In this document: piece after piece, positions 1-63,000 of the stretch
How positions within the stretch are numbered: the stretch's first letter is position 1
Layout: every line of letters begins with the position of its first letter
DNA from: Ascidiella aspersa
Lineage: Eukaryota
Length of the DNA stretch: 64,000 nt
Assembly (NCBI GenBank): GCA_963924565.1
Contig: OZ004607.1
Location: forward strand, 2,976,001-3,040,000
Direction: 5' to 3'
Translations under genes and position numbers: made by a program
Notes under the pieces: generated by a model
What the model saw: only the letters and a program-made list of their open reading frames with translations
Databases searched by the model: none
Told to the model about the DNA's origin: nothing

Positions 1-78
1 TATGCCTCAGCAAAGAACATTTGGCTTACATCCCTGCTACATTTCAGGCGATAAATATTACGGGTAGATCTACGCTTC

Positions 79-3000
79 CTACTTTCTCGCTACCACTTTG
101 TGCTTATTTTCCTCACCATCTACCCCTGCTTGCGATCTTCTGTTATCTATTGTCCCTCTTCCACTAGTGAGGCTACTCACGCGGCGAGAAAGCGACTGGC
201 GACTTTCCGTTTGAGGGCGCACTGGGGCTCCCATTTCTTCAAATGCCTGAAACACAAAATATCGAATAAAAAAAAACAAAAAAACAAACATAAAATATCG
301 AAAAACTCTTTTGAAAGCTAAGTCTAGGGATGTCCGTTAATGTCGGTTCGGAGTCGATCTCCGAAGCGAGTTGTTAGGTTCCGTATTTGTCCGCTACCTG
401 GTTTAGGTATGAATTTCAGGAATGCTATCCAACGCTGCGTTTTTTTATCTTTGAATGTAAATTTGTTGAAAATAGTGGGCTGACCAGCAACCCTAAAGCA
501 AATTTTTCAACATAAAAAATTAGCATTGACAGTTTTAATTACACAACTTTGCTTTTTTAAACATAGTAAGCTTTTTGTTTTTTTCGAGTATCGTTTACGG
601 AACAAAAGTATAGAAATCCTTACTTAAGACCACCATTTGCTTATACGAAACCAAGGTTACATTTAGTACACAAAATACACGACATGCAAATATGACGAGC
701 TAATTTTATGACTCACGCTGCTTCGCTTCCCCACCGGCTGCTTCTCCAGCGTGTCTCTACTCCCCACTTTTTCGGCAGTGAAGGATGTCAGCGCCATAGA
801 ATCCCGACGTGCCTGGTCGGTCAGCATCAGCTGGGAAGCGGCACTACCTCCCTGGGCGGTCCCTATATTAAGAAGATTATTAAGTTGTTTTTGAGAAATC
901 TTTTTAATTTCTCCAACAGTCGTGAAAAATTATAACATGTTTGTGCAACTTGGTAAGTTCGATAATACCGGATCGGAGCCGATACTCCATGCGAACAGTA
1001 TCGATACTCGTCCGATACAAGGACGGTATCGTTGCCGATCCTATACCGAATTCAAACAAAAAATTCAGCCATCATTTGCGACCCAACAGATCGATTTAAT
1101 CTTGAACTGTAAAAGAATAGTATGATAACAAATGTAGCATAGTAATGACGTCACTTGGTACCGGATAGGATCGCAATACTTTTTGTCCAAAATATCAGGT
1201 CGCGGAATAATATGTCAAGTATTGGACATCGAAATGTTTAACTAATACAGATGACAAGCAGTTAGGGGTTGCCAGCGGGTCGTTGTAGATTTGAAATTTC
1301 AAAGAGCCATAGCCAAAAATAAATACAACATGAATATAAAAGCTGGATAAAATTAGACGAACAGCCGCATGGCGTTTGTGCGCCGCTGTATGGCCACGCC
1401 AGACATAGTTTTTATTAAAGACATTTTCAACTTTTAAAAATAATTTTAAAGATTTAACGAGTTTTTAGCAACACTCAAGAATAAAACATATTCGACGTGG
1501 CTCTTCTCTAGTACGTTTTTTAGGATTAGAAGTTAGATTTAAAGAATCAATTTTTTTTTCGTTGCACCTTCGGCTCTCCGATTTCTTACAAATGTGATGC
1601 CATATGTACAGATATTTTGAGCTTTAATTGTGAAACGTAGTAATCGTTTAACTTTATAGAAACATACGTTCCACGTACATGCGTGTATACAACAACTGTT
1701 ATCTATCCCTACAAAGTCACCTTTCCATAGAACACCAGGAACTACACACTCTAACAATTGGGGATATTGAGTCCTAACATGACCAGGCTAAAAACTTACC
1801 TACGATGAGGTTCGAACTCATAACCTCGGTTATCGTGGGGACCGCTTTAACCTTTACCGACATTTGTGTCAAACAGGGGACAGAGAGGATTTTTTACCAC
1901 ATGAATTAATAGTTTTGCATAGATCAAACATGTAATTTCTTCACAATGGCTTTCGATATGTGTTTGAAACGTACATTTGCACAATGTGTATTCTGTTATC
2001 AAGCTCTTCTGGACTCGTACTGGCCAACAACGACGGCGCACAAATATATTACACAAGGTGCTTTGAAATGGGTCAGCCTGATCAGGATTATAGTGCAAAC
2101 AAGGCCAAAAAACTAAACGTGCCATAAGGTTCGAACTCACGACCTCGGTCATGCTACACAGGCTCAGACCGAGCCGAGAAACAACTACTGTGTTTTAAGC
2201 TTTCAATATCTTTACAGTTTAAACTTAAGTATCCCCTTGCCCAATGCGGCTTCAGCAAGTGCCCCAGGTTTGGTGCTGGGTTTGCCAGTTCGGTTCTTCA
2301 CGGTGGGGTTGAGTACTTCTGTGGCGTGGGGCTTGCTGCTGGGGGGGCTAGGGGGTCTGGCCGGCCCCACCTCCCCACTGTTTTTCTCTTGGATGAAAGC
2401 GATGCTCGGAGTTCGCTGAAGACAGACATCCGATCTCCTGGAAGAAGATGGACGTAACTAACCAGGGATACGGAGTCTTGTAAAAATAACCCGAGTCCGA
2501 CTTAGAACAAAATTAAAGTCGGGTCTCCCAAGTCCCGTCGAGGCCCGAGTCCAACTTTGACTTTACAGACTTTATTTCACCCATTTAGGTAACTAAAAAG
2601 CTGGATATACAGTAATCTACTCATAGGGCGTCATATAGTTCGTCTAATCATAAAACATGGGAGGAAAATATTCCACTATTCGCTATTACACTTAAAATTA
2701 CGGTTTGCGGCCTTACAAGTTTTAAAATCTGGCACTGCGCATACACACGTCGGACTCGAGACTCGGGTAGTTTTACTCGAGTCCCAAGTCCCGAGTTTCA
2801 CTCCAGCAAAAGTTACCTGGTATTTACTTAATGACGTCATTTGGTACTTAATGGTATTTACTTAATGACGTCATTTGGTACTTAATGGTATTTACTCAAT
2901 GACGTCATTTGGTACTTAATGGTATTTACTCAATGACGTCATTTGGTACTTAATGGTATTTACTAAATGACGTCATTTGGTACTTAATGGTATTTACTAA

Positions 3001-6000
3001 ATGACGTAATTTGGTACTTAACGGTATTTACTAAATGACGTCATTACTAGGCCCAACTAAGCAAAATTAGTTCAATTAAAAAGCGCATTTTGCGCCGCGA
3101 CCCATGGTTGACAAACGCTGTCTTAACATAGTAAGGATATCAAATCCCATACAGAAGTATCAGATAATTAAAATAAATAAAGAAATTTTCGATAGGTTCA
3201 AAACCTACATTTATACGGGCTTTGATATTTCTACAACTGACTGGACCTGTTGTAAATTCTCTCTTGCGATTTGAGGTTTCGTGAGCTGGTTTTCGGGAGA
3301 TTGCCGAAGCTGGTTTTCTTCTTCTGCTTGGTTGGGCTCGCCGACGTACGCCTTCGCCTGCTCTCATCCAGTTCCCCAGTGGATCTGCTGTCGCGCTTAT
3401 CGGATAAACCGAGAGCGGTTCGACTTCTAACTGGAGACTGGAAATAAAACATCAGAGTAGAAGTGTTGGATAATATCAGATGGGAGCAGAAACCCGATGC
3501 CGAATGTTAGTATCAGTACTGGGTGGGATCGGTGCCGATCCGCTACTATTGTTTAGCAAGTTCAGGAAAAGTAGATGTTTTAGTGTTTCAAGAAACGAGG
3601 TTTGATTTTGCAATAAAGGTTGGATGTTATTGTTTGTTGCAAAACACGAAACAGCAATTTTGTCAAGGCCTTAATTGTTGTATAGAAATGATTTTCAAGT
3701 TATCTTGAATTATATGTACAATAGGAAACTGAAATGGAGTCTTAATACATTTAAGGAGAATGTGACAAAGCCTTGTTTTCTAATAAACTATGTTCTTTCA
3801 AAATAAACTTTCATTTGTTAAGGAATAACCTAATATTTCAATCACGCCTTTATGGAGCCCAAAATATCAGTTCACGAACCCCAAAGGGGTCAAACACCCA
3901 GTTTAAGAACCCCTGAAATAAAAGTACCTACGACAAAAATCAGGTAACAAGAATATCAAAGCTCATACAGAAGTTGGTATAATTTTTGACGTTTCCAATA
4001 AATCTTAAAATAATGGTTAAAGGTTGCAGTTGACGTAGAATGAATATGAAAGCCCATACAGAAGTTGGTATAATTTTTGACGTTTCCAATAAATCTTTAT
4101 TCATTTTCAACAGCTGGAAACATCTGTTGATGTTGAAAATGAATAAAGAGTTATTCGAAATGTTCAAAATGCTTCCTACTTTTGTATGGGTTTTGTTATT
4201 TATGCTACGTCTAACTAGAACCTCCAGCAATTGTCAAGATTTATCCGAAATGTTCAAAATGATCCCTACTTCTGTGTAGTCTTTGATGTTCTTAATGCGT
4301 TCCACACTTAAATCGAACATTCTTTCAAGAAAACGCTGTTTACAAAAAACAACACTTAAGCGTAACTCACAGTCGCCTTTGTCACTGACTTCGTGGCCGC
4401 CACGTCATCGCGTTCCGCTTGAGCAGGTGTGACGTTATCAGCTTGCTGCTGATCGTTAGAGTCGCTTGCATCGGAACAGTCGGGCGAGTGGGCGTCGTTT
4501 GTGGCGACTTGTTTGTCGAAGGCTTTAGTAAGAGGTCGTTTGGAGGCGATGGGCGGTCCGCCTTGAATTAAAAGTCGCAATGTTATTATTGCCTGTTTTA
4601 TTTTAGGGAGGGATGTTCAACCTTTTTTGCAAAGGGCCGCATTGCAACTTCAAATATTTGAATGGGCCGCACAACCTATTAAGTTATATTTCACGAAAAA
4701 TGGCTAGTAGTCTAAAGGGGCCTTCATAGTTACATATATATATACCAGTACTATAATATTAGTGCCCCCTAAAATCTGACTGGTACACTTTTAATTAGGC
4801 TAAGATTCAAAGGTTCAAAATACTACTTAGAGTGAAAATGACTAGCGGGCCGCACAAAAATTTCAGGGGGTCGCAGGTTGGACATCCCTGTTTTAGGGCT
4901 TTCGGTAGATTTGAGCAACTTCCCACTATGTTTTCAATTTCCTGGATAAGAAATCTATAAAAGTTTAAAATTCGATCGTTCGCCAAAGTCTTACGTTAAA
5001 TCAAAGCACGCCGTCTAAAGATCCTTTCTGGGTTACGCATTTAGGTGGTCCTAAAATATCCAGCCGCCATGTTAGCTTTAAATCACCGCTTAGTTACACA
5101 TTGCCATGATTATAATGGCCGATATATAGGCCTCAAAACCAGGGCTGCGGAAGCAATGTAACATTTGGAAATGTAATTCGGCAAAGTAGTGCTGGGTTGG
5201 GATGTTCGACAATACCAGATCAGAGTCGATACCCGATGCCAAGTGCTAGTATCGGTACTTGTCCGATATTAGGGTGGTATCGGTGCCGGTCCGATACCAA
5301 ATTGATATAATATATTCCAGTGTTCTTTGAAGTGAGGTTTGTCCGATAATATCGTATCGGAGTCGATACCCGATGCCAACTGTTAGTATCGGTACTTGTC
5401 CGTAGCCCAAAAATGTCGGTAAAATTTAGTTTGGATTTCCGAATAACGCATGTTATCGCAGTTTTTGGGCAATAAATAAATGGCACAATAACCACAGATG
5501 CCAAAATGCGTCTATAACCTCCAGAATCCTATCGATTCCATGTTGTGGAACCCCCCGGAACAATCGGTAGCGATCCGACCCCAAATTAACGTAAGGATTT
5601 TAGTCGTGATTTGCTATACAACGTGGTTATTTCTACATTAAAAAATATATTTATATAATAACAGCTGTAGATTAACAACTGGAGGTAATTAAGCTTTATC
5701 ACCCTGAAACAAATTTAGACCCTAACCTGAAAAAATGCCCTACAACATTTTATTTTCTGTTTTTTTCTATTAATGCATAGTAATAACGTCATTTAGTGTC
5801 GGACCAGATGGCCAAAATATCGGGTAAAGCCATAAAATTAAAAAAAAATTATTGTCGTACATCCTACCTGGCACGAAGCTTCCATCCTCGTCGTACTTTC
5901 CGTAAGGATAAAACTCTCCGTCGGGTCCCAGCTCTCCTCCGACGTACACGCTGTAGTCATCCGCTTCCGGGTCCCCAGGCTCTTCCTCCACGTGGACAGT

Positions 6001-9000
6001 GATGAGGCGCGGATCGGACACCACCTCCCCTCCGCGCACGCACCTCCAGCAGGATGAAGTGGACATCTCGGATGCGAGCGGGATTCGAGGAGTGTGCTGG
6101 AGCTGTAGGACCACTTTCTCGCTGGCTTGGCTCGCAGGACGCGCTTGCTGGAGTCTGTTCCCGTTTTCGTCTTGCTCTGAGAAGGGCACAAACAAGGACT
6201 GGCTGTCACAGGATCCGGGCACCAAGTACCCATCCCTGTTAACGCACCCAGCTGCAATAAACCTCCCTTTCGAGTCGTAAGTGCCCGGGAAGAAGCTCTC
6301 CTGCTGTTCATCGCGGAACCAGACGCCGCTGGCCAGCAGGTCACCTAGGGGGGCGTCCGGGCCGTCCTGGAACACGAAGCGAAAGTTGGAGGCCAGGTCG
6401 TCGGCGGCCAACGCGCGACTCGTCTGTGACGTCATAGTCTGTCCGAGGGTGGGAAATCGCACGTCGCTGAACACGTGCGGGTCCTGCTGGCCACGGTGCG
6501 CGTGGTAGCATCCGTCGTCGTCGAAACGCCCGCGCGCCGAGAAGGCCAGGTCGGCCAGAGTGACGTCACTAGTTTGTGACGTCTGGTGCGCGAAGAATCC
6601 CGGGTAGAAGGCGCCGTCGTTGCTGCGCAGACCCAAGCAGCGAAGTGAAGTGGTGGAGTGCGGAAGGGTCATGAACTTTTCGCGCATTGTCCGCGCCACC
6701 TGCAGCGCCACCTTGCGGTTGACCTCGTCACGTGACTTGCGATTTCCTTCCGCCTCTTTCTTTCCTTGATGTTGTTGTGAGAGCTCGGTGAGCGAACTGG
6801 GGCCTGTGGAAAGTGTGGGGCTTTTTTAGGCCTAGGGTTCTCAAACTGGGGTCGGGCTCTCAAGTCCCTCCAATACTGGGACTTGCAATGGTTACCCCTC
6901 ACCATAAAATCGAAATTTAAAATTGCACAAATTTGACGAGCTAGATAAATATTAGAGGACTGCGCTTCTTAAACTGGGACGGGGTGAGACTTTTGGTCCA
7001 TCTGGAACATTTCAGGGGTTCGCGCAAACTTTTAAATCCATTGGCTTTTTAATGGTCTATATATGAGCTCGTCCGTGTTGTAATAGTTCAACAGTTTATT
7101 TGCAGTGTTTATTAGTATGGAAACAGCGACTTGAATGTTATGTAGAGTAATTAATTATTGTACCATGTTTTTTTTTTCAAATATGCCGCTTTAAAAATGG
7201 TTGAGCCCCTTCATTATTTTAGGAAAGAAAAAGTGGTTTTGCAATGTAAAAAAGTTTGGGTCACGTGAGCGAGTTACTGTGCCTAAACTAGAATAATTGA
7301 CGTAAATAGATTATTTCCAAATTGCTCTTAATTTCCTATGTTAACAAATAGCAAGTTAAGTTAATGACCGAAAAGTTAAACGCCAAGATTGAATAAATAC
7401 AGGCAATCCAAACAATAGTCTGTATCGAAAAACTATATTTCGTACAAGAAACAACGGTTTTAAGTACATATTAAATGAATTGGTCAAAAATACCAAAAAA
7501 ACACTATACGAAAACACCTAAAATCAAAATATTACAAGACATAAAAAACGTTTTTTACATTTACTTAAAGCAGTTTGACTGAATTGTAATTTGACAAATG
7601 AAACACTGCTCGGCTCGAATCAAATTTGAAACTAGGGGCTTACCCAGGGTGACTCTTGTGCTTTTCGGGTGGCGTCCCCTCTCGAACGCCTTCACGATCT
7701 TTTGCCGCTCCTCGTCGCTGGAGGCGCTGTTGAGCAGGGGCAGAATGCTGGCGAGGTCGTCGTTGGACACGAACTTACGAGCCTCGGAAGATTGCAGCGC
7801 GGCCAACAGCTTTGCCGCTTCGCTGATGTTAAGCTCGAAAACTGGCCCGCGGGTCACGCGCGACACCTGGCGATAAATATAAATTCGTCGGGCTGCCGCT
7901 AGTCGGTTTCGTGTTGCAATTTATTTACCAGCGTTTTGGATAAAACATTTTAAAATCCAGACATTGGGGCATGACTAGAAAGTCTGGTTTACTGGTTGTT
8001 GATTTTTACCGTATATAGAAATCCGTCATGTTGCGCTAGTGGGTTTTTGCGTTTCGATGCATTCGCGAGCGTTTTGGATGGAAGTTTCCAGACATTTGGG
8101 CATAACTAGAAAAGTCTGGTTTACTGTTGTTAGATTTTTTACATTGGGGCGCTAAACGTAAACTTGCATATTTTGCGGCAATCTACGTGTTTGTTAGATC
8201 TAAAGTGGTCTTCTTTTATATGCTCTTCCTTAAGGTTATTTCTATATACAACGGTTGGGCAGTTTTGGACTAGTAACGCAAACTACAAAATTCCTCGATG
8301 CCAATTCTAAAAAGTTTACAAATTTATTACAAAGTTCTGCCATTGGCACAGCTCCATAATACTTCTGCTATCTTTCTATAGATCTATTCCACAGTTAGTA
8401 TATGCCTTTACCTCGATTTGAGTTCATCAATTCAGACGGAGATACAAAGTTTGCAATATTCTAATCATTTATTGCAATAGTTGTTGACCCTTAAAACATT
8501 TTTGTCCTAACAACCGGGAAAAAATAACTTTTAACCTTCCAATTTCGTTATAACCCTTCAAAGAATAACTTTTAACCTTCCAATTTCGTTTTAACCCTTC
8601 AAAGAATAACTTTTAACCTTCCAATTTCGTTTCAACCCTTCAAAGAATAAATTTTAACCTTCCAATTTATTTTTCTTTTTTTCACTTTTCCATTCACGAT
8701 ACTTTTGTCCAATATATCGGTTATCGGTATCGGAATAAGCATCAAATATCGAACATCTCTACTTGTAACTCTGTAGAATACTGTTGGGTTTTTGGGTTAC
8801 CCCGGTAAAAAACCCTGAGATGGTTTGTGTGATGATGTTTCCTTACCTCGTCACAGCTTTCAGGCAGTAGTCCTGTCTGTTGCCAGTGAGCCAAGCACTT
8901 CGGGCAGTGGAATATTCCTCTCGCACCAGGGGTCGTACCGCTTCTATAGTCCGCATGCACGTTCAATGTGATCTGACAACGTTATAAAAAAGTAAAATAA

Positions 9001-12000
9001 ACCCTACTTTAGTCCAGTGCTCTTCAATCCTGTATATACCGAAGTGTATGCTGGATTAAAGCTAGGGAATACAACTAACAAAGGGTATAAGAAAGGTATA
9101 CAGATTAGGTCAGTAAATAACACAAATGTGACAAAACACTTTTTTCCTTGAAATATGTTGTATTTTTAAGATTTCATCAGATCATGCCCACCAAATAAGT
9201 CAATGCAAAAAGTTTTGCGCTACTCGCGAATCTTATAGGTCTGTTTATGTTGACACGAATTAAGGGTTTAGGCTTAAGACGATGTGCGTTTCATGGAATG
9301 CTGCAATATTATTTTCGCTTTGCGAGCGTCTGGCTGCTGTATCGTAATTAAAACGCATGTCTTATAATTTGAATGTTTAAGCAGATAATAGCATTACAAG
9401 ACTTTTTCAAACTAAACTTATAGTTGGAACCATACAGCTGTTTAACGGCGTACAACTTGTTTGCCATTTGATCAATATGTCTCGTCTACTTCAAATATAA
9501 AAATGGCAATTAAACCTACATTTTTTTTTGTTTTTAAACCAACATTTTTTTTATTTTTTTATAAGGGACGCTCTTTTTCTTTGGTGCGCAAGAGTGTTGA
9601 GCGAAAGCATGAAGGCGCTCGCGTTGTGGCGTAAATTTGTGACGTCTTACCTTAATTGATTTCGTGCCTTTGTGAATTTCTATTTGAGGGTTGTACGGAG
9701 TTTTTAATAAGTTTGAGTTTTTACAGGTTAAATAGAGCGCAGTCAAACGGCAAAGAGCATTGCTTCAGTCGAACAGAGTTGTAATCAGAACTGTACCTTG
9801 TCCCTTGTGAATTCACGCCTAAACCTCTAGCCCTCTAGCCCGATATTTCTGGGTCCTATTCGACTTGCAACTCTATAATAATTGCAAATAATACCGTGTA
9901 ACGTAATGCCGACAATATTAGCCTCATAAGGTACAAACTTTTCAATATAACATAAAACGGCTGCCGTTCTTTGTAAGCTAATTAGTTATTTGTAGTAAGT
10001 CCCAACTGAATATAAAGTATATTTTGTGAATAAATCAGTCTTTAAAAATCGATGTTATTTAGCTTGAAAATGAATGTCAAAGTCAAATAGGTCGAGTAAA
10101 TCGACTTTATATTTAAATGACACTTCGATATGCACTTGTAACATCATCCGTTAATGTAACTTGATGTGTAGCTACTTACATTTTGAAATTTGAGTTTAAT
10201 TGAAGTTCGAAAATTTAGGTTGGTCTACCGTACATTTCTTTCTTTAACTTTTTTAGTTCCAAAACGTAAAACATATTATTGTGCGTCGCTTTTTCAGAAA
10301 GTTAACACATTTGTAAGTTTTACAAGCGTTGGTTAAGTTTAGAGCAGTGCTTTTCAGCCCGTGGGATGGTACTCACTTGTGCGGATGACAAAAATTGTAA
10401 TGCGGATGACGAACGTCGTGCGGATGAATGTGCGGATGAACATGGTCCATATTATTATTTTTATTATGTGTATTATAGTAATCAAATAGGCTGATGCGCC
10501 CACCTATGCGTTACAGGTGCATTAATAGTCTCTCAGTGGTCCAGATTGATCTGTCTATTTTATATCGGTCAAGGCTGAGGCACACGGTTTTAATACACAA
10601 ACCCTTTCTTTGTTATTTCACAAATAAAACTAAAGGTTGCCAACTTACTGTGCTTGTTTTGTGCGGATGGGTATTTTCCGAAATAAAAAAGTGCGGATGG
10701 CAATTTTAAATGTTGAAAAGCACTGGTTTAGAGGGTGCAAAAACAAAAAATCTGGCCATTTGGTTGGTGCTCGTTGTAACTTACCTCTATTGGAACTCCG
10801 AGCGCATGGATGTGAAGTATATCTTCTATTTGTTCTTGCAGCAATGGGCCGAGTACGAACGGCTCAGGGGTTGATATCGGCTTGAACTTAAACGCGCTTC
10901 CTTCATCTCTGTAAGGTCAAAACTTTAAAACACACAGCTAACTGTTCTCTAAACTATTTTTCAAACGCCAAATAAGCAAAAGTAATACATTTTGCTCGAA
11001 CGACGTGATCTTGCATATTACACATAAATTGGTAGACATGCTGAATATGGCACACGGGTGTTCAACACAATGCAGCATAACAACACCAATAAACTAGATG
11101 GGAGTCGATAGCTCCAGAAAGCTTAAACGATGACGTCACAATACTTTAGGCTTTTTGTCCCCTAATCGAAGGCCCCAGGGGTGCAGACTGGTAAACCTCT
11201 TATGCCCACCTACATAGCATTCTACGTCTTGTCTGAAAATTTGAGAATCCTACGATCTATACTTATTCTATAAAGCTTCGGAAAAAATCGGTCGGAAACA
11301 TTTAAAGGCAAAAACATGATATGTCCCGAAAACAAATTTTCGGCCCATATAATTAATTAATGAAGACAATTGCTCCTAACCATTCTATAACAGATAATCG
11401 GGAAATGTATAGTCACCGCTTAATAAAAAAGGATAATTGTCAGAATGCATTTTTTTCAACTTGATATGTTTCATACCAGCTTCTAGAAACGTACAGCTGG
11501 ACCAGTATTTACCTGGCGTTGGTCTTTAATGCAGGAAGTGCCAAATCCTGTCCGAGCACTGAAAAATGCTGCTGTTCGCCGTCAAAGCGCTGAAATATTG
11601 GCGGCAGTTTGTTCTGAAAAAATATATACATTTTACTCGAAAAAAATAAACGTTTTTAGTGGCCAGGAGGTAACCGAAAACCTACTTTTTGATCATGGGC
11701 TCATAGCAATTACTTTTTTATGTGTAGAATTCAGTTAATAGTATTTTTAACTCTCGGAAAACACTGATCTAAACTACTTTTTTTTGAGCAATTTAAGCCC
11801 AAAATAAGTATCTATAAATGGTGTCCATATAGCAGAGTTTGACTTACTTGGCTTAAGTGCCCTTGAGTCACAGTTGAAATAACTTAACTTGGCGTAAGTC
11901 TTTTGGACAAATGACTGGACATACACTTAAATCATTGCGTCATATAACTAGGGTTAAAATTAGGTGTTTTTGTCAAACATTTTAAATAAAATTGGGCTTT

Positions 12001-13566
12001 TAAGCTCAGTCTGGGCAAGACAAAGACGAGTTTACCAATTTTTAAAGTTGAACGCTTTATTTTTGTTAATGAGAAGTTGACTTTTTCTGATGACTGGAAC
12101 TAAGACTTGTTAGTTTTGCATTTCAAAATGCAAAATAAGCTAATTTTAACAAGCAATTGCTTGCAACACTGTCATATAGTATTTACTTGGTGCTATACTT
12201 CAGAGGCGTAGCAAAAGTATCTTGCACCCGGGGGCAAGCTATAAAATTGGCGCCCCTCCTCCATGTCACATTTTCTATACATTAACATAATATACCTTAC
12301 TTTACCCGGAAAAAGAGTTCAAATTTTAATAGAACATTGTATTTGAAGAAGAAGCGGCCCCATTCTGGCATTTGTAAGCCTCATTTTGCCGCCCCTTGAC
12401 CTTTGTGCCCATGGACATACGCACTTCACCGCCACCTCCAACTACGCCTCTGCTATACTTACTCAAAAGTCAGCAACCAGCGCAAAACTAAAGCACATAC
12501 CTTGAATGACTCGGACGTCGATGGTCTGTTGGCGGAATCTTGTTGTGTTGACGAGTCCGCCTTTTTCAGGACGAGATTGAGAGAGTTGTGGTCTTCTTTG
12601 GCGATTGCCCCCCTGTCTGAGGGGAGTCTTATGCGGGACTTTCCCCGTGACGTCAGAGTTTGCCGGGAATGGGATCGGGTGGGTGGTTTTTGCTTGAAAT
12701 GAAAGTGTTTGTTTTGTTAGTAATGGAGGACTTTAAGATTGTTATGAAAATCAATTTTGTTGCAACCAGTAATGAGGGTAAGCCGAAACGGTCAGGAAAG
12801 CTTTTTTGCAAGTACGCCGTTGTGATAAAAAAAAATATTTTATTAACCATGTCATGTCCTTTTGTAACAGGTCATCCGGCCATCTCCTTTGCCATACTCA
12901 AACAAGTAGAAAATAGATTAACTCAAAACGCTTAAAGGACGTTTTTCTCCGGGTGGTTTTGGGCTTGAATTTAAATAGCTATTCTAGGTAGAAAACGCTG
13001 TTTTTAGTGGATAACAAAATCATGCCTTAATTTGGTATTGAATCACGAAACAGAACCCTACACAGAACAGTCCAACACTTTTTATGTTCAAAAAACGCCT
13101 TTTTCTAGGCTGCTTGTTAACCGATGTCATAATTGCTAGTTCACCAGATAGTTCGTAAATGCATACTTTGTCAATGTTTATTTTGACATATTTGAGGAAA
13201 AAAAGTTAGTTTTTTAATTGGTGTAATGTAAAACCAACATAAAACTGTAACTTAAATGGCTTCTGAAAGTTTCGTCTAACTGAAACTGTTTTTCTATATT
13301 ATTTCTAGTTTTGACACGGAACTACGCGTGTTTGTTACAATATAGTACCATCCAACAAATTATTGAACAAATAAAATACATTAGCAAAATCTCCAAGACA
13401 CAACGGCACTATTGCTAAATAAAATAAAACTATCTTGACATAAATTTCTTACTCTTCTCGGTGGCCTTTTGTGCTGTTTTGGGTTTTCGGCACCTTGCTG
13501 AAAAGTTGTGGCCATACCTTCATCTTCTAGAATGGTAGTTAGCGGTGATGTTGGCTCAGCGTCCAT
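79..13566 (-). CDS. Uncharacterised multi-exon protein (~870-900 aa), largely disordered, with a central CxxC/helical segment and G-x-F/Y-x-P-G repeats
   Basis: Exons in transcript order, all phase-compatible: 13566-13453 (ATG, MDAEPTSP...), 12692-12501, 11613-11513, 10908-10785, 8972-8847 (FHCPKCLAHW), 7866-7644, 6803-5868, 4561-4371, 3437-3247, 2437-2241 (GC donor), 862-717, 246-79 (TAG). A GTGAGT donor at 180 could instead carry the gene beyond the window. Exons are GC-richer than introns and have AG acceptors. No family recognised. Confidence 0.8.
1790..2190 (-). repeat. Two truncated tRNA-derived repeat copies flanking a fragment of a second dispersed repeat
   Basis: AGGTTCGAACTCA at 1808 and 2127. 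Segment 1975-2060 matches 61460-61545 (CGTACTGGCCAACAACGACGGC). More tRNA-repeat fragments at ~37025, ~44075 and ~44840. Confidence 0.7.
2818..3046. repeat. 34-bp minisatellite, ~7 units, each with an AATGACGTCATT palindrome
   Basis: Unit TGGTATTTACT(T/C/A)AATGACGTCATTTGGTACTTAA. Six perfect TGACGTCA and one TGACGTAA. Confidence 0.95.
3925..4330. mobile_element. Foldback-like palindromic element with ~90-bp modular arms
   Basis: Tandem CATACAGAAGTTGGTATAATTTTTGACG units inverted about a centre at ~4120. Related copies at 57040-57325, 28310-28465 and 3130-3230. Confidence 0.7.
4609..4890. mobile_element. hAT-type MITE
   Basis: TIRs (C)AGGGATGTTCAACC / GGTTGGACATCCCTG; 8-bp TSD TTTTAGGG. Confidence 0.85.
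5200..5420. repeat. CGATAC/GTATCG-rich dispersed repeat
   Basis: Duplicated GAGTCGATACCCGATGCCAA.TG.TAGTATCGGTACTTGTCCG. Relatives at ~960-1230, 3465-3545, 8710-8755, 29895-29943 and 35200-35285. Confidence 0.6.
7930..8145. repeat. Local tandem duplication (~80-bp segment, ~137-bp period)
   Basis: AGCGTTTTGGAT...CCAGACATT.GGGCAT.ACTAGAAA(A)GTCTGGTTTACTG occurs twice. Confidence 0.75.
8521..8668. repeat. 41-bp minisatellite, ~3.5 units
   Basis: Unit AAGAATAACTTTTAACCTTCCAATTTCGTT(A/T)TAACCCTTCA. Confidence 0.92.
10345..10725. mobile_element. hAT-type MITE with subterminal GCGGATG repeats
   Basis: TIRs CAGTGCTTTTCA / TGAAAAGCACTG; 8-bp TSD GTTTAGAG. Confidence 0.9.
12201..12452. mobile_element. 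hAT-type MITE
   Basis: TIRs CAGAGGCGTAG / CTACGCCTCTG; 8-bp TSD CTATACTT. Confidence 0.9.
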
Positions 13567-14138
13567 TATTATAATTCCTTAGTTTAAACAAGAAAATCTT
13601 TAAATTAGAACTAATTTCTTTAGAGTAATTTAAAAGTTTGTTGTGACTGGAGGCATGTTTATATCCCGAAACGTCACAATTGCCATTGTCTTGCTGATTG
13701 TGACTAAGGTAATGAAAAGACAAGTCATTCTCGGCTCCAAAACATTTGGTTTGTACTGTATATTTTTTCCAAGCAGAAAAATAAGCCAAAACTGGTGTAT
13801 TTTGTGCAGCCAATTATTTGTCTAGACTTATTTTGTGTTTTAGTTAGCTAACTTTTACAATATTTATGGCAGCCGCACCTAGCTTACTTAAAAACATCCC
13901 TATTTGAAAATACCTAGAGCCACTTTTTGTAAATTGGGTCAATAAATGTAAAACAAATAGGTGTGAGTCTAACATACTATTTAATTGCGTTTATACACTG
14001 TTTTTTGACTTACAGGATAAAGTATATATTGCTGGGATTGTTATCTATCAGTATAGATATTTGTTTTGGTTTGTTTTTCATTTCTATGGATGTAACGGTG
14101 ATCTAGGCTCAGAAAATAATCACAGATTTACTTTTCAG

Positions 14139-14368
14139 GTAAATTGATAGCAGCCCAGTACGTTTACGCAACTGTGACTGGGATAACTGTAACGGATGAT
14201 CAACGCGTTATTATTACAAACAAGATGGGATTCGTTATTGTCGACAAACTCATCGACGAGAAAAACCCTGCCGCACCGGAAAAAATTCGAAGCCCTGGCG
14301 CTCCGGAAAAGCGCAAAACGTCTTCCCATAAAAAACGCCCGAAATCTTCAGTATGCCAGATCGCGTAG
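14139..14368 (+). CDS. Putative small prenylated protein: last or only coding exon, ending KRKTSSHKKRPKSSVCQIA* (polybasic + CaaX)
   Basis: TTTTCAG acceptor at 14132-14138 and an open frame to TAG 14368. In-frame ATG at 14225 in AAG-ATG-G context gives 47 aa. Alternatively a phase-1 exon 12723-12777 (ATG...GAG G|GTAAGC) gives 94 aa. AATAAA near 14668 and 14800. Confidence 0.5.
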
Positions 14369-14891
14369 TTTAAATCTGTACTGTACTGTTAATCAAGATG
14401 TACTTACTTGCAACTGTTTTTTAAAATAGGCTTTGTGGAAGCATTAGGTTCGGAGGCAGTGTTATGGCTAAAAGACAGCTATTCTGTTGTACCTTATTAC
14501 TTTGGTTTTTAATAACTTTGGTAGACGCTATGCACCTAATGAAATCGTAAATTCTGAGTTGAGATATTTACTATTTCGATTTTTTTAGCGCTTAGATTAG
14601 TTTAGAGCAGTTTATGTTTTAGTCCTATGACGAAAAATCTTTAAACTAAATCATCAAGACTCTTAAAAATAAATGTTTTTTTTCACGTTTAAGAAAATCG
14701 TCTGTTTTCTAATTCGCCGCACTTATGTGTTTTATGCATTTGTGAAATTTGTAACACTCGCTTTGTTTTATTGCGCAATTTTAATTTCAGCTATTTTATA
14801 ATAAAAATGTATTTTTAAATTCTGTCTCGAAGAAAACTGTTCTGGTGAAAATAGGGTTACAATAATAAAAAAACACAGATGAGCTACAATC

Positions 14892-15348
14892 CAGGGGTTG
14901 CCAACACGCCACTCACGAGCCGCATTCGGCTCTTCACCCAGTTATATGCGGCTCTTACGTTCATGTTGCACTGAATTTTAAACTGTTTCGATTTCGTTGG
15001 TTAAGGGATGAATTATTGCCGGTTCCGACTCAGATTGTTTGCCTTGAGGCCAATGTATTTTTGAGCATTACTTTTGAAACAAGATAAACGCAAAAAAATA
15101 TGCCTAAATAATATTGATAAATAACATTATATCGAGAAATGTGTATTTTTTTCATCCAACGCGTCGCGTCTCCTTACTTAACGAATTAAAGGCACTTTTT
15201 TCGCGCTTCGTGCGATCGCTTTGTGGAAGTGAGTAAGAAATGGAGTGATAGGCCCATTCTTTTCGTTCCATGTGTGTAAAGTGTGGCTCTTAGCGGTTAA
15301 CCAAGTAACAAATCCCGCTCTTGGTATTTGATTGGTTGGCCACCGCTG
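14892..15348. mobile_element. Degenerate hAT-type MITE
   Basis: CAGGGGTTGCCAAC / GTTGGCCACCGCTG ends with GGCTCTT subterminal motifs. TSD is degenerate. Confidence 0.6.
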
Positions 15349-15513
15349 GGCTAAATTCATGACGAAATCCTAGACACATTGACAGGATTGATAAACATCT
15401 GTGAGGCACTAATAAAGTACTATTTTAAGTATTTATTTTAATTTAATAAACACTAAAATACCATTCCAAATTTCCCACTCAACTGGATTATAAAGGAAAA
15501 AAATCCCCTAATG

Positions 15514-15848
15514 CAGTGGTCTCCAACCTATGGGTCACATCCCATGTGGAGTCGCCTAAACCTTTTATGGGGTCGCCATCACTCACCAATTCCTGCAGTT
15601 TTAGTTGCTTCATTGCGCTTGTGGTTTAAACGAACGCAATGAGTGTATTGAAAGTGTTAAAAAAATTATTTTTCGTTCTCAATTTGATGCTACCAACAGT
15701 TCTCTGGAATTGTGCATAATTTAAGCATAAATCGTTCGTGTTATTTATTTTAACAGTACTTGTCGAAAACCAAACTTAGGCCGCATGTAAATGCTGATTT
15801 ATTTTCATTAAACTTGTTGTCGGTTAATAAAAAGGTTGGAGACAACTG
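15514..15848. mobile_element. Degenerate hAT-type MITE
   Basis: CAGTGGTCTCCAACCT / AGGTTGGAGACAACTG ends. TSD is only partly conserved. Confidence 0.7.
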
Positions 15849-18800
15849 CCCTTACACAAAGTGTTCCTTTAAAATCATGGAAAAAACAGACGAAGAAAAA
15901 CCATACGTGAAAATAAACATTTTATGATCTTTTCCAGTTTTCCAAGTCTAAAGGTCAAGTTTAATTGAGTCTGGGAAGTATAATATAAATCTTACACAAC
16001 AGGAAGACAATAGTTGGGTACACTATGCACGGATCTGTAATGTAGCTTGATAATAAATTGCAAAGCCAAAAAGGTCGAGTAGATCGACATCATCTTGATT
16101 AAGACGTTTAGACACGAGCGTATATCATTATCAGCTAATGTGACTGAGAAGCAATTCAAGCATTACTCATAAGAGATGGGACGCAATTGTCATCAGCAAG
16201 ACAATAAAGTCGTGAAATTACTCTTTAGGCCTATTTATTTTCTTCTGAAATTACTGTTTAGCTATTTAACGTTTCCTTGAAGCGACAATAAGTCTCGATT
16301 GCAATTTAATTGCAATTTAATATTTTATTTTCTTTTTTTATTCGGTCAAAAATATACTTAGACAACACGAAAGCGGCGTCGCTCTGGCTAAAGCGTAATT
16401 TTATGAAGGAATTTCAAAAAAAAAACATAAAAAATGTTGCATAAAAGAAATATACCTGAAAAATATGGGCGAAATATTAATTGAAAACGTTACTTTAGTT
16501 TTTAAAGTAAGTATTTTACAATAAAACTAGCAATGAGTGGCTCTGTTGTTACAGTTTTGTAGATCAGTTGGCAATACGATCCTGTATGCAAACCCTACCT
16601 GGAAAACGGAGATTTCCAAAACATTGTCAAAAATCGAAACATCTTACCGTTAAAAGCAATTTTTATTATTTTAATAAGCGAAAAACGCCTTTGAACGTTT
16701 GATTTTTTTCTATTTTTGCTTTGTTTGAGCATAATAATTACGCAACTTGGTATAGGATTGCGTTGGTACCTTTAAACCAAAATCGTTGGTAAAAAATCGA
16801 GTCGTTACCGGGAAAAATAAAGTATCGACATCCAAAGAACCAAAGAAGTTATCTACTGATTACAATTGCCCAAGCAGCGACATGCCTTCTTTCTTTTGGC
16901 GCTAACACCTGACTTACCTTTTTCTAGAGTCATTCTAATGGATTTAGTTAGTTGCTTTTTCTTTTATAAGATAGTTGGTGCTCTTTTGTTGTCATTCGCC
17001 AAAATTTATAATGGTTTTATAATATAAAACGGATTTAAACCTAGCTTGTCTGCAAACTTCGTACAATAGACAGACTATAGTTTAAATTTTAGGAAATGTA
17101 CTTTGACTTTTTACTGAGTTTTTGCAATAATTGGCGTTGTACTATTGAATCATAAAAAATTAGAGTTAGTTCTCCGAAATAGTTTAGGTTGAAAAGTGTA
17201 GAGCACTGATTTGACGATTTGCGCACTGATGTTTTTTTTAGCATGAGGCATATTTGTGCAAAACCTTGCTGGCTAATAGCATAGGTCGCAAAAGTTTTTC
17301 TTGGTGTAGCGTTAAGAAGTACTTACCCCAATGCGTTGCCAACTTGACGTCACTATACACGTGATCGGTGTCCACTGAGGTGTGACCAATGCCCGGGTTA
17401 GTGGGATCGGCGTTTCGCGATTTCATTCAACCTTATAATTTTCATTTCTGGTTACTGGGTACAACTTTAAGTAACGGCTTATATAAGTCACCCTGTTACG
17501 TTATAGTGTGACTCGGGCTCCGAATAGCGACCGTTAGAAAGGCGATTGTAATTAGAGCGACTAAACAAAAGAGATACATTTAAATCAGCAGCAACAGTAT
17601 ATACTTCTCCTATTGTTCATCTAACAATTTTACTATGCCCCCAACAAAATTTATATATATATATATAGAACTCTTTATAATTTGTATTGAAGCATTTATG
17701 AGCAGTATGACAATCGATTACATGCCTTCAATTGTCATGCACTGTTACGTCACAAATTATGTAGTTAATATTACGTTTGCTATATTTAAGTTTTACTACT
17801 TTTCACTCATTTTGTTGTGGCTCTTTCAATGTTTTTTGAGTATTGCGTTAAAACTCAGTCAGTTGCTGCTCGAAAAGGTTTGTTAGAATATTTATTTCTG
17901 TTTGATACGACAGTTCATACAATGGCAAAAGCTAAACAAAAAAAATACGACTTGCTACGCCACCAGTCATCAGGTGCGACACAACCTTAACAAACGCTTA
18001 ACGCTAAACTTAATTTGAATATTTGATCAAAACAAGTTGTAAATTTGCTAAAAATGTGATTTTTTTGGTAAATTGGTGCTGCGGTTTCTCTAATAATTTG
18101 AAAGTAGCAAAGTTAATCTAAATAAAGGGTCTGAAACACACTTACATAACCACTATGAAGACAAAAATGGGTAGAAATTGTTACGCTTGATGATTAACAC
18201 ATAATTACTGTACGCATGGGTTGACAGAATTACATAATTACGCATAGATTGACACAATGGTCTGTTAATCGATATGACATATTGCTTATAGTTCACACAT
18301 CCGATTTGATTGATCGGTTTTGTAAACGGTCTTAGTTAAATAGTTAGTGTGCAAAAGACGAACCATAACAAATGTATGTAAAAGGACGCATTAGTCTAAT
18401 TCGAAATAGACTGAGAGGAATAAGGTGGCAGTGTATAAATAACAATGTAGCAACGGCTTATAGCAGAGGTCATCAAACTGAGCGTCGAGACGGTAACTAT
18501 AGACCGCAATCAAATGCTAATTAATATTGACTTATGCATTTAAACCAGTGATTTAAATACACACTACCTATACTAAATTAATCATATTGAGACATTTACA
18601 AATAGTTTGTCGTGTGTTAAGGGTGATTGTAAAATGACTCTATTGTTGTTCTGTTAAAAGTGAGCTGCGAAATATTTAAGATATTTTTAGTGTGCCGCGA
18701 GTCAAAAAATTTGGGAACCACTGATTTAAACTTTGTTTTACTGTAACAATGGAATATTATCATTTAACAATCACCTTTCTCACTTGGAATTCAGTCGTAA

Positions 18801-20404
18801 ATTGTCGTGCGTCGTGCGTGACAATTAAGGTCAGAACAGTCAGATGTATAGATTAAACAAAAAGCCAATTTTGCAGCTAAAATATCAATTGAAACAACAT
18901 TTTTTTGCCTGTGTTATGATTTCTTGTCCTGTTTTAGGTATATACAGTAAGTTCAGTTGCTTCATGTTTTCTTTCTTTTGTGTGTTTTTGATAAACAAAC
19001 AGGTAAAGAAAAACTATTGAAATTCCCATTATTTGGTGCGTTTTTTGAACGAAAACAAAAAAAGTTCAGGAATCACTGGCTTTTTCCTATGTGTAGCTTC
19101 AATCAAAACGCTAAAACCAACACTCCTAAAGAAAAAGGGACTGGCCGGTCGTTGTTTTTGTTCTAGAAACTTTGGCGGGCACATAATTGACCTTCATTCA
19201 GGCGAGTCGAGCTGTCTCAGGGTCTGGTGTCAGTGTGACTTGCAAGTCATGTTCGAAGTATTTAAGAACAGGGCTTCTTAAACAAGTTTCAGTAAGGGCA
19301 GAGATACAAAAAAAACTTGTTTGTTTTTGGAGGTCTAGGTATTTTAAAATGCAGCACGTCGATGCGTTATATTTAATTGGTGAATGAAAATATATTTTAT
19401 GTTGGTTGCGATTGAAAGCTTATGCTCTGGTTTAACGTTTTCTAAAGAAGAAGATGTGAGAAAAAACATTTGACAGTTTTAACTACTTCGTGCTCAGCTG
19501 ATAAGCTGGTGTACATTTTGCTAGCTTGTCACCTATAGTTTTATGTATCTGCGATTCCAACCGACACTTCTGGAATCATTAGTTTGGTGAACCTAAACGT
19601 TGCAACTGGCGGCGTGTTTGGTATAGTTTTTCAAGAAGTGGATTTTGCACATTACGAGTGGCATTTCGTTTTTTTGAAGTTTTTTTGTCGTTACTAACAA
19701 TACATGGCCTTAAGGAAACCGGCCTGAACGGGCAAATAAAAATAACTTTGCCAAATGAAATCGACACATTCCAAGATATCGTAATTGTTCAACATGAACG
19801 TAAGAGCCGCATGTAGAAAATTTCGCCTAAAACGCTCTGCATAGAAAAACATGCTAAAAATGTGACGTAAGGTCTTGCTTTGTATTGATTTTAACAAAGT
19901 AACAATCGTAAATAAAACAAATGTTATTATGCTAAATTTAAAATATTATTTCCCCCAAAAGTCGATTTTCCCAGTCGTACTTTCGGTTAACATCCAGCCT
20001 GTAGTACACCACGATGTATACATCTATACAAATCACAGCTTGTAGTATCATAGCTTGCCCGTTTATTTTAAAAGGCATTTCCCAGTAGACAGGGAGCTGA
20101 AAGGCTGCTGGCCGGTGTCGTCTAAAACCGTTCCTTTAACAAATATAAAATATCCGCCGAAATTTATAGCTTACAAATGCGGTTGAAAGCTCAGGATTAC
20201 TGGCCGCTAAATAGAGATTGTCGGGACTCTTTCAAATTTGGACGCACAGGCGAAACCGTTACAACAAAGGCAAAACATTTTGCGCTGTTCTACTCAGCTC
20301 AATATAATTTAGATAAGTTGTTTCTTATCGTGTTGTTGCTCACGTTTTTTCTTTTTTTTTTCTTTGTGTTTTGTCGATTTATTGCACCACGAGCTTTTGG
20401 TGTC

Positions 20405-20454
20405 ATTCACCCTGAAGAAGGCGATTTGAATTGGTTGCCGAAACGTTGGTTAAC
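20405..20454 (+). ncRNA. Minimal type I hammerhead ribozyme motif (Penelope-like element type)
   Basis: ACC-CTGAAGA-A-GGCGATT-TGAATT-GGTTGCC-GAAA-CGT-T-GGT: core boxes present, 7-bp stem II (with G-U pairs), palindromic AACGTT in place of stem III, stem I ACC/GGT. Confidence 0.6.
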
Positions 20455-21460
20455 AATTACAATTACCGGAGTGTCGTTTATGATTAATGTTACTTTGCCT
20501 GGTAGCAATGGTTTACATATATTATGTTTTTGAGCGTGCTTAAATAGTGGCAGACGAACACTGGTTGACCACGAGCCACTAACACCTCATTTTGGGAATG
20601 TATTTCAAGCGGCAGTCCACTAATTGCAAAGCTAGTTTTTTAATGTGTTTTTAAATCGAGTATACAGCCTTTGAAAGCATTTTTTAGTTTGCGTTTATTT
20701 AAAAATGGAAAACTATGTTGATTACATGTTGTTTAGTGTTGTAACGCAACAAATATTGTGCATTGATAAGAGCTAAAACTTTTTTTATTGAATAACAATA
20801 TTTAGGTGTATGTTCAACATAAAATACATTAACGTTGTTTTCCAAGTTATGGCGCTAGGATTTTTAAAAACAGGTTTAAATATTTTAATAAAGGCGATCA
20901 TAGTATTTTGCTTTGAGCTTCGTTCGACGCTGTTTTGAATGTAAACAAACTTGCACAACTAGCTAATTCTAATTGCTCTATTCGCCAATCGAAGTTATCT
21001 AATTTGTGTTTGCTAATGTTCCCTTCGCTTTTAATTCGAATATAATTTTTGCTTGCATGAAATATGCTACATTATAAATCGGCGTTTTGTATAGTTTTTG
21101 TTTAAATTTAATATTTGGCAATGCTGTTTAGTTATAAGCCTATAAAAAAGTCCAATCTTGATGTAATCTTTGATATTTACATTCAAATCAGAACAAAGCG
21201 TAAATTTATTTCAATTATTTCTGAATTTAATGAATGCAATTCTTGTTCAGATTTTAGTTAAATTCTTATAGTTTTCTTGAATTCGGTAATTCCAATTCTA
21301 ATCAAGTTGGGAAAAAACGAAAAACTATAATTTTATCTCCAATCTAATTACAGAGAGCTGAAAAACAAATTGAGTTATCCAAGTTTACATACAAGGGAAG
21401 TTAACCCGGCTTTATCCCGAAGAAGACTTGCACAACAGCCCCTGTGGGTTTTGGTGAAAC

Positions 21461-41991
<20,531 letters not shown>

Positions 41992-60000: not shown

Positions 60001-63000
60001 CTGTTATCTTACAACGCATGAGTTTTGCGCCTTATTTTTTCCTAACTGTTTATTTGTTTGTTGCTACAATGTGAACACAGTAGCAAAGGATCAATGAAGA
60101 ACCACAAAATGGTTATCGAGTCAGTTGACCCTGAAGGTATACGGAATTAAGGTTACAACAGAAAATAGGAAATATCAACGTTTAAGAAGAATATTAAGCA
60201 AAAATGCATAAGGAACGTTGGCAACCTAAAGAAGATATATGACGGTTAGAATATTGTCTTGTGCCATTCCAAACTAAATGTCGATATTTATTTTTCGTTT
60301 TTTTAACGATAATAAAATTATTAGTTTCTTCAAACCAAAGTTATATCAGGCCTGCGATGGTCAAGCCCTACGGTTATCCGGCTATTTATTAAAAACAAAA
60401 TACATATAGGTGGGTTGATTGGTTGAGTTGTTGTTTTGCTATATTAAATTATTAAGCATTTTAACTGTGGTTAGGTACTTTGCAGTCATACAATTATTAC
60501 GAGGTGCTGTAACTGTTAGTTGCTGTCACGCGCGTCAATCTTCACTGTAAGGTTTATATAGGCTTCAGTATTAACCTCTTTTGACGCAGGGAAACTGCTT
60601 GGGTCAAAGCCATCTCGCAATCTCTTTGAACTTCATTTAAACTAATATTTTAACTAAATATTTGTTTACCCCAATCGAACGATAACATTGTGTCTTGGGT
60701 TTCATAACTTTACTTGGTTTAGCCTTTATGACGTCATCTCTAAATTTTCCTGTGTTTTCAATTTTTTTTTCGTTTCCGTAAAATATTTATTCTTTATTCA
60801 TCCCTGGGTGGCACACTTTACAAATTAAAGTCATTCTGACCAATTATACACTTAGATCAGTTTCACTGCGTAACTAGGGTTTTAACCCCTGATAAAAACA
60901 ATTGCCATATAAATTTCGTATCAAATCGGTACCGATAGCACACTAGTAACTTGTAAAATTTGGAAAAAATAATGCAGGCATTCGATACCTAAATGCACAC
61001 TTACAATAAGATATTAAATAATATTGTGGTATTCACCTATAAGAGGGCCGTGTTGTATCAGATAACACGTCATTATGTATTGTGGTATTATGCATTCATG
61101 TGTGGTGAGTTTATTTTATTTGCTGTGCGATATAAATAAAAATTGATAACCATTATTTCAAGCCGTACAATCGATATTTTACTTTGGATCAAAAATCAAA
61201 CACAGATCCATCATAGAGCAAAGCACGTTAATAACTTATACATTTCAAGAAAGAGCTAATGTGAAAAACACACTCACCTCATCGCGGAGTCGTCTCTCAT
61301 TCTGTTGTCCAGGTTCTGAGGTTCGAGCGCTTGCATTTTTGCGTTGTCGATGTTCTCCATTGATCCGAGATCTGAGATTTCTTTCGTTTTTTATTCGTAT
61401 AGTGTTAATTGGAAACGTTATTATTTGTCTATTTAAGTCATTTTGTAACTGAAACGCTCTTATGCACAATGTGCATTCTGTGATCAAGACCTTCTGGAGT
61501 CGTACTGGCCAACAACGACGGCACACAAATATAGGACACAAGATACTTTCGGGACGGCTTAACGAAATATGTCAGCCTAATCAGGATAGCTTAATCATGA
61601 TTTCTGACGTCAAAAATGTGGAGTTAATCGACGTCTTCTTGGTTAACACGTTTCTAATGCTGACAATGATTGAAGCTCGTATTGAAATGTATTAATCAAG
61701 ATGAGGTCGATCTACTCGACCTTTTTGGCTTTTCAAATCAGTATTAAGCTACTTTACAAATCCGTGCATAAAGTATGCCAAGTAATTCATTTTATTAGCT
61801 TTAAAATTCTGGTATTATGTTGAAGAAAATATATACATTATTTAAATAAAATATGACTCTTTTGTAAGTTAACAAAACTAAATTATTTGTCATTAAATTT
61901 GTCCTATTTAAAATATAACAGTCTGCCAAGAGTAACGCGGTTATGAAATTTTTGTATTATGGTTGAGCAAGTATATTTAAATATTTAAATATTTGGTTAT
62001 GCATCCGACCCGGTCGTCAAATAAGATACAGATCCTTGCATATTATAAAAAAAGATTGCCATTTGCCTTACCCGTGTGTGCGTCATAGCTCTCCAGGTCC
62101 GATGTGGGTGACGTATCAGTAATCATTGAAAGGGGGTCAGAGGGGTAAGGTGTGGGGTGCCACTCGCGCCCGTTGAATCGCCCGTTGGAATCCTCCTCTT
62201 CCCCCTCGTCCAAATAGTTAAAATTCACACCGTTGCCGCCACTAGGTGGTGTAGCTTGGCAGAGAGCCACATCTGCTAAGGAACTGTGGTCAAAGGTCAC
62301 GGTTTGAGTGGTTCCGGCCTCACGGGCGCACTCCACCGGCGACATCGACAAATCGTTGGCGCTTTCGCCAGCTTTCGGGGCACAAAACGCCGCCAAAGTG
62401 CCGCCAGCGGCGTCGGCCATCTTGTTCTCCGACTTGTGCTGCTGTTCAGGCTCCGGAGCTGGTGCATGTGAATCGTGATCGGCGTTTGAGACCGAATACA
62501 GCTCATCGTGATGTTCTCCGTGATGCAGGTCGAGAGCCTCGTCTTGATGATTCTCATGACGCTCGTCGTGGAATTTTTCATGAAGATTTTCGCGAAGATC
62601 TTCGTGATGATCTTCATGATGATCTTCCTGATGATCTTCGTGATGTGCGTCGTGAGCTTCGTCATGATGTTGTTCGTGATGTTCATCTTCGCTTTCGTGA
62701 GGAATAATTTCGTACGAATCGTGAAGGTTTTCGTTTTCACGAGGCGGCTCTTGGACGTGTTCGTGATCTTTCACATGATCTTCGCTCGACGTAATTACGT
62801 CATCGATAATGACGTGTGCTTCGGGATCCGCTACAGCGAGATTTTTGACGTCATCACAAATAGCGGCCACGTCATCATCAACATCAGCTTCATCTTTGGG
62901 TTGCTCACAAACATGAATATCTTCTTCATGAACCTCATCGGTCGAATCACGATGTGAATCGTGAAGTTGCTCGTGAAACTTTTCATCGACGTGATCATTA

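Follow-up and report, generated by a model that had tools for sequence, protein, structure and literature searches.

A polybasic CaaX motif on the terminal exon of a predicted NWD1/NWD2-family gene of Ascidiella aspersa

Positions 14139-14368 of the window, i.e. of the whole stretch of 64,000 nucleotides of Ascidiella aspersa DNA that was analysed, are almost certainly the exon with which a large NWD1/NWD2-family gene ends; the predicted start of the gene lies 43 kb before the window. The whole explanation which we favour is that this last exon gives the NWD1/NWD2-family protein a tail of polybasic run and CaaX motif, likely to be farnesylated, which would hold the protein at a membrane; we regard it as probable. 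The gene belongs to a known family, and its lipid-anchored form, as read from the sequence, is probably undescribed. The NLR-like switches of the NWD1/NWD2 family are conserved and poorly understood, and their head was recently shown to adopt a TIR-like NADase fold. A prenyl anchor, if true, would show where some NWD members sense their signal, and it can be probed by exchanging one residue. The principal features are listed below; coordinates prefixed C1 are those of the contig, all others are those of the window.

C1:2932976-2969295, plus strand: exons 1-24 (DUF4062-like head, NACHT, helical part, WD40), from the predicted model
C1:2969959-2970103, plus strand: exon 25, encoding a WD40 repeat and followed by a phase-1 donor, from the loose end of the X3 contig and PF00400
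C1:2970104-2990138, plus strand: last intron, 20,035 bases, of which 1..14138 lie in the window, from the splice in X3 contig 7
14139..14368, plus strand: exon 26 of the model, which completes the coding sequence of the NWD1/NWD2-family gene, from X3 contig 7, X4 RNA and the NWD2 profile
14309..14344, plus strand: polybasic run, from sequence and residue count
14354..14368, plus strand: CaaX motif CQIA (14354-14365) and stop codon, from sequence
14369..14752, at least to 14752, plus strand: 3' untranslated region, from X3 and X4 coverage and sequence

The terminal exon and its upstream partner

Four runs were aligned to window positions 4500-24400, and two of them again to 12460-14885. X4 is a stranded RNA run, about 6 in 100 of which were read; the kind of run X3 is not on record. 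The strand convention of X4 could be fixed because 15 reads with the first mate on '+' cross the CT..AC joint 12693-13452 of a minus-strand gene. Reads with the first mate on '-', which represent plus-strand RNA, were found only over 14161-14484, at a depth of 0.6-2.6 (about 4 reads); the depth of X4 is 0 over 12703-13431 and 13675-14160. By the original prediction, an absence of plus-strand transcripts over 14139-14368 would have spoken against a hidden small gene encoding a polybasic-CaaX microprotein; such RNA is present in X4 (about 4 reads). The letters are as they had been described, with a TTTTCAG acceptor ending at 14138 and a stop-free frame running to TAG at 14366-14368. The exon is a true plus-strand coding exon, and its acceptor is used, as seen from the contig splice in X3 and the plus-strand RNA in X4.

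The transcript to which the exon belongs is revealed by contig 7 of X3. This contig comprises 1571 letters at a depth of 19.8 (versus 2-5 for intronic contigs) and was aligned to 14138-14554 and 14616-14752; upstream of 14138 it carries 1017 more letters, which resemble nothing in 12460-14885. The 30 contig letters adjoining the joint are absent from the window. They have a single match in the genome, C1:2970073-2970102 on the plus strand with 1 mismatch, and end a 145-base exon, C1:2969959-2970103, with a phase-1 GTACGT donor. Position 14139 is thus joined in frame to the exon ending at C1:2970103, 20,035 bases upstream, and this is the sole joined sequence seen there. The partner exon is located 5.9 kb before the window start, which is why the earlier reader could not see it. 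With exons 23-25 of the model, 978 of these 1017 letters would be explained, in keeping with the predicted structure; the direct comparison covered the last 30. Note that the last splice junction is supported by one contig (X3) and that none of the X4 reads, about 4 of which lie on the exon, crosses the junction C1:2970103->14139.

A DNA retrocopy was considered as the source of contig 7 and rejected, one genome match being listed for each exon that was searched. It is no threat to the junction in any case, because a retrocopy would record the same splice. The exon 14139-14368 itself matches once in the 308.6-Mb genome, and no paralogue was found there. It contains no GT[AG]AG donor; used alone as a query it matched no Pfam family, and relatives were found in 0 of 392 candidate stretches of metagenome contigs.

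The 3' untranslated region contains AATAAA at 14668; further copies are located at 14800 and 14864. Contig 7 shows a 61-base gap at 14555-14615 within this region, and the X1 contig covers 13282-14956 without a gap. An intron was rejected as the cause, since the ends of the gap are TG..AT; it is probably an allele.

Gene model and family assignment

The model was built from 100 kb of upstream sequence; open frames were listed, and exons were seeded by eye and snapped to splice sites. The predicted gene consists of 26 exons extending from C1:2932976 to 2990368, with GT-AG borders throughout, and is open for 1701 codons. Further exons could be missing from the model in the 12-kb intron 19. This intron also harbours, in antisense orientation, two glutathione S-transferase genes (C1:2955013-2955672 and C1:2960139-2960797, minus strand; L005 and L004; PF02798 and PF14497). 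The first is a single frame of 220 codons; the second has an apparent frame change near its start, which may point to an assembly error or a damaged copy. Intron 16 contains an array of 23-base tandem repeats (C1: about 2949970-2950670).

Compared with proteins named NWD2, the model shows 34% identity over about residues 20-950. A profile compiled from 30 NWD2 proteins matches it with an E-value of 1.2e-198; the match takes in the head, both Walker motifs and the helical part. Walker A (residues 412-419) and Walker B (near residues 508-515) are aligned to this profile, as is the winged helix/helical region over residues 600-946. From residue 23 onward, the model aligns unbroken to the head of NWD2 proteins bearing PF13271. 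Single exons used as queries gave no match to PF13271; for this reason the DUF4062 (NIR) head was judged by alignment. The NACHT exon alone gave weak NACHT and AAA matches below the cut-off. Queries with exon 13 retrieved proteins bearing PF25469, and one of these searches gave two proteins among 96 candidates; a direct search of the genome with PF25469 gave nothing, its controls likewise remaining unmatched, and the exons split the domain. Exons 3 and 13 have at least one genome match each, one being listed per exon.

The C-terminal half is represented by WD40 repeats. PF00400 is above its cut-off in exons 18 and 25 and weaker in exons 19, 22 and 24; for exon 25, the E-value is 7.3e-9 and the score 36.2 bits (cut-off 27). 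Positions 1566-1661 of the 1698 profile positions align to residues 1599-1691 with an iE of 5.9e-6 (one target), and the last junction, at residue 1626, lies inside this segment. Because the NWD2 profile aligns across the junction, we take the first half of the exon at 14139 to close the last propeller. A search with exon 25 gave no homologue, and one with exon 23 gave 7 representatives, among them 5 single-exon fragments that lack the C-terminus. For P0028, the PDB gave no NWD structure, the one match being a WD40 chain named Ika8, and an Atlas look-up of P0003 led to generic WD40 clusters.

The predicted protein shares with NWD2-type proteins a length of about 1700 residues, the order of DUF4062-like head, NACHT, winged helix, helical part and WD40, and a collinear C-terminal blade. 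It differs from them in a strongly diverged WD40 half and in a long branch of its own, together with the locus L014. Its N-terminal region aligns to PF13271 carriers, as in the DUF4062/NIR-NACHT STAND proteins TEP1, NPHP3 and TTC41; the model, in contrast, has no TROVE or vWA domain before its head. Judged by these sequence comparisons, the assignment is to NWD1/NWD2 jointly; among the sequences listed, none bore a vertebrate name.

The CaaX end and its possible use

In K-Ras4B-type targeting, a cysteine is farnesylated, the last three residues are lost, and a basic run binds to the acidic membrane. Exon 26 encodes, in order, the last WD40 strands, a low-complexity linker, a polybasic run, the CaaX motif and the stop. 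Among the 20 residues preceding the cysteine are 7 Lys/Arg and 1 Asp/Glu; the polybasic run is interrupted by Ser, Thr, His and Pro. The cysteine at -4 belongs to the true C-terminus, as the spliced contig contains the exon with its stop and X4 reads cover them, and no variants in the motif were listed for X3 and X4 over 12460-14885. With the K-Ras4B anchor, the end has in common a basic run followed by a cysteine at -4, an aliphatic a2 and a small X. It differs in that the basic run is broken and that it would terminate a STAND ATPase of 1700 residues, not a small GTPase; for the protein described here, the comparison is one of motifs.

The K/R-rich run and CQIA, which had been noted at the exon end by the original prediction, qualify as a good prenylation motif by sequence and by look-up in a reporter screen. 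In this screen of 8000 motifs with a yeast Ras reporter, CQIA reached an enrichment of 6.84 (CVIA: 10.1; CASQ: 0.40), the cut-off of 3 being passed by about 6% of motifs (PMC4358939). In a second source, CQIA is counted among the positives used to train predictors of prenylation and of cleavage, and three of four prenylation predictors score it positive (PMC9231725); these sets may draw on the screen of PMC4358939. The acceptance of CQIA is a look-up that concerns the yeast enzyme and another carrier protein.

The conservation of the motif was assessed in two groups of sequences. The NWD2-type set consisted of the best 120 of 416 proteins, found with P0002; because P0002 was the query, the set leans to arthropods. 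After 21 proteins with fewer than 1550 residues had been dropped, a cysteine at -4 occurred in 0 of the 99 NWD2-type proteins of at least 1550 residues (best 120 of 416, mostly arthropod), unlike in the gene described here. The second group comprised 10 NWD loci from metagenomes, 3 of which reach a readable C-terminus (L015, L017 and L019); the other 7 were not counted. Two of these three predicted last exons end in CaaX, CVIV in L017 and CSIL in L019, and L015 has no CaaX:

L017:3393-3953: predicted last exon of an intron-poor NWD-family gene, ending in CVIV, on a metagenome contig
L019:5680-6237: predicted last exon of an intron-poor NWD-family gene, ending in CSIL, on a metagenome contig

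L017 and L019 have PF25469 above the cut-off, and CVIV and CSIL are positive in all six predictors. The two last exons are 47% identical; their tails differ, with the cysteine at -4 kept, and the number of Lys/Arg before the cysteine is 7 in L017 and 3 in L019. The last exon of L019 has an internal GTAAG. We counted the two loci as one lineage. In trees of the helical region, our gene groups with L014 on a long branch, apart from L017 and L019, which fall into a different deep clade; joining it with L017/L019 was not rejected (p-AU 0.12, long branches). Searches with exons 13, 23, 25 and the last exon found no close relative with a C-terminus.

These data have to be weighed against the explanation that the gene is the same, an ordinary cytosolic NWD member, and that CaaX is the unused chance end of a fast-evolving tail. 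It accommodates the 0 of 99 among NWD2-type proteins and the end of L015; the searches gave no close orthologue with a C-terminus, and human NWD1 is described as mainly cytosolic (PMC4039239). Against it stand the position of CQIA among the roughly 6% of motifs passing the yeast reporter, the 7 Lys/Arg preceding the motif, the CaaX ends of two of the three other NWD loci with a readable end, and the rarity of cysteine, which makes up 1.8% of NWD residues. We consider a chance end rather unlikely and, given the gene structure described above, the use of the lipid anchor quite probable as judged from the motif. Supplements of PMC11152559, PMC3188499 and PMC7902609 contain no NWD1, NWD2 or NACHT entries; this absence is no evidence either way, because they are not necessarily complete CaaX lists. 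A full-text search, judged by titles and the beginnings of abstracts, found no link between NWD1 and prenylation. The trait may already be on record in sequence databases, because the C-termini compared were those of mostly arthropod NWD2-type proteins and of metagenome loci.

By analogy with STAND proteins such as APAF-1, the WD40 propellers of the anchored protein would hold the NACHT ATPase closed, a ligand would open it and cause oligomerisation, and the oligomer would gather the DUF4062 (NIR, TIR-like) heads into a scaffold or an NAD-cleaving unit. By analogy with K-Ras4B-type targeting, the cysteine would be farnesylated and the last three residues removed, and lipid and basic run would tether the sensor end to an acidic membrane on its cytosolic face. 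NWD1 belongs to the STAND proteins and combines an N-terminal effector domain with NACHT and WD40 repeats; in the mouse, Nwd1 is found at the ER and at mitochondria, and its C-terminal half suffices for ER localisation (PMC11897295). The C. elegans protein QUI-1 functions in sensory neurons (PMC8871372). An APAF-1-like activation has been proposed for the family (bioRxiv 10.64898/2026.05.01.722283). DUF4062 is given as a TIR-like NADase fold, and, in the two preprints, NAD is cleaved by TEP1 only, purified human NWD1 and NWD2 being inactive (bioRxiv 10.64898/2026.05.01.722283, 10.64898/2026.09.04.749371). Our model retains a Glu, E91, where the corresponding column of the NWD2 profile is Glu, and from this alignment we infer that E91 may be the catalytic position. 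A more general proposal is tentative and, in our view, doubtful: prenylated NWD-family STAND proteins with a TIR-like NIR head and a C-terminal lipid tether might exist in several animal lineages, the anchor might be an old, overlooked trait of part of the family, and the missing lipid or membrane might be one reason why purified NWD proteins lack NADase activity.

The nested minus-strand gene, proposed shorter products and neighbouring genes

The last intron of the NWD gene is occupied by a gene on the opposite strand:

5868..13566, minus strand: nested antisense gene, first seven predicted exons, from model, RNA and the 15-read intron
12723..12777, plus strand: exon proposed originally, unsupported (depth 0 in X4 and X3; 1 of 6 mini-exons)

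Intron 1 of the nested gene (12693-13452) is the one crossed by the 15 X4 reads mentioned above, and minus-strand RNA covers 5828-8483 and 12468-13795. The gene is expressed, multi-exon and longer than 600 codons. It seems to continue past the window start to about C1:2971600, still inside the last intron; these further exons were modelled from open frames only. No Pfam family was found in the 5 exons scanned. One exon bears CxxC, a GC-rich exon of 936 bases contains Gly/Tyr/Asp repeats, and the C-terminal part is of low complexity, basic and acidic. Nested antisense genes in long introns are common in animal genomes. Here, as in other such cases, the last intron is taken up by a minus-strand gene of several exons, and the two glutathione S-transferase genes are antisense in intron 19; nesting at the NWD locus is ordinary.

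The separate small gene did not hold up: in the sole joined transcript, more than 1000 letters precede the joint and finish with an NWD exon, at a site where depth is low. One of the two forms proposed for it, a 47-residue protein, has an ATG at 14225 that does exist in frame with the CQIA end, and no start cluster accompanies it. A related alternative is that the promoter of the nested gene is bidirectional and yields, besides the long mRNA, a short plus-strand RNA for a 47-residue polybasic-CaaX peptide from this ATG. The start of the nested gene, 13566, and the exon are about 570 bases apart, and with few X4 reads a minor start could go unseen. X4, on the other hand, shows neither plus-strand reads over 13594-14160 nor a start cluster or a joint at 13708; the sole contig includes upstream NWD exons, and the ATG is part of a strand aligned with the NWD2 propeller. 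Such a peptide is very unlikely.

The second proposed form, a 94-residue protein, would use the segment 12723-12777. This segment does have an ATG, a phase-1 GTAAGC donor at 12778 and an in-frame continuation, and it does lie within intron 1 of the antisense gene; as an exon it has no coverage, the depth being 0 in X4 and X3, and no joint at 12777 is listed. Neither 12777->14139 nor 13708->14139, the two junctions that had been suggested, is listed in X3 or X4 over 12460-14885. On the plus strand, the last intron contains 6 distinct ATG-opened mini-exons with a phase-1 GT[AG]AG donor (29 with GT[AG]A), and because of these 6 the phase match of 12723-12777 is at chance level. The segment runs antisense beside the branch-point-like CTAAC of intron 1 of the nested gene, of which the AG at 12719-12720 is the reverse complement. 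Contrary to what was originally envisaged, the two genes are not interleaved; the minus-strand gene is nested in the 20-kb last intron of the NWD gene. That 12723-12777 and 14139 nevertheless form a 94-residue protein of interleaved genes, or that 12721-12777 serves the NWD gene as a cassette exon of 57 bases, is barely credible: the GTAAGC donor is a good consensus, the frame matches and the AG at 12719-12720 would keep the frame of a cassette, but the depth is 0 in X4 and X3 over 12703-12783 with no such joint, the segment is one of 6 equivalent mini-exons and has no Pfam match, and that AG mirrors the CTAAC on the other strand.

Beyond the NWD gene, further genes were observed. Upstream, a GDSL lipase-like gene (C1:2926915-2930092, minus strand) is arranged head-to-head with the predicted NWD start, about 3 kb off. 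Downstream in the window, plus-strand exons of an ABC transporter extend over about 24900-38900, with PF00005 at 38632-38928; in our own reading, the transporter is ABCC-like. Near the end of the window, an open frame of 651 codons on the minus strand (62046-63998) is rich in His, Asp and Glu and matches no Pfam family.
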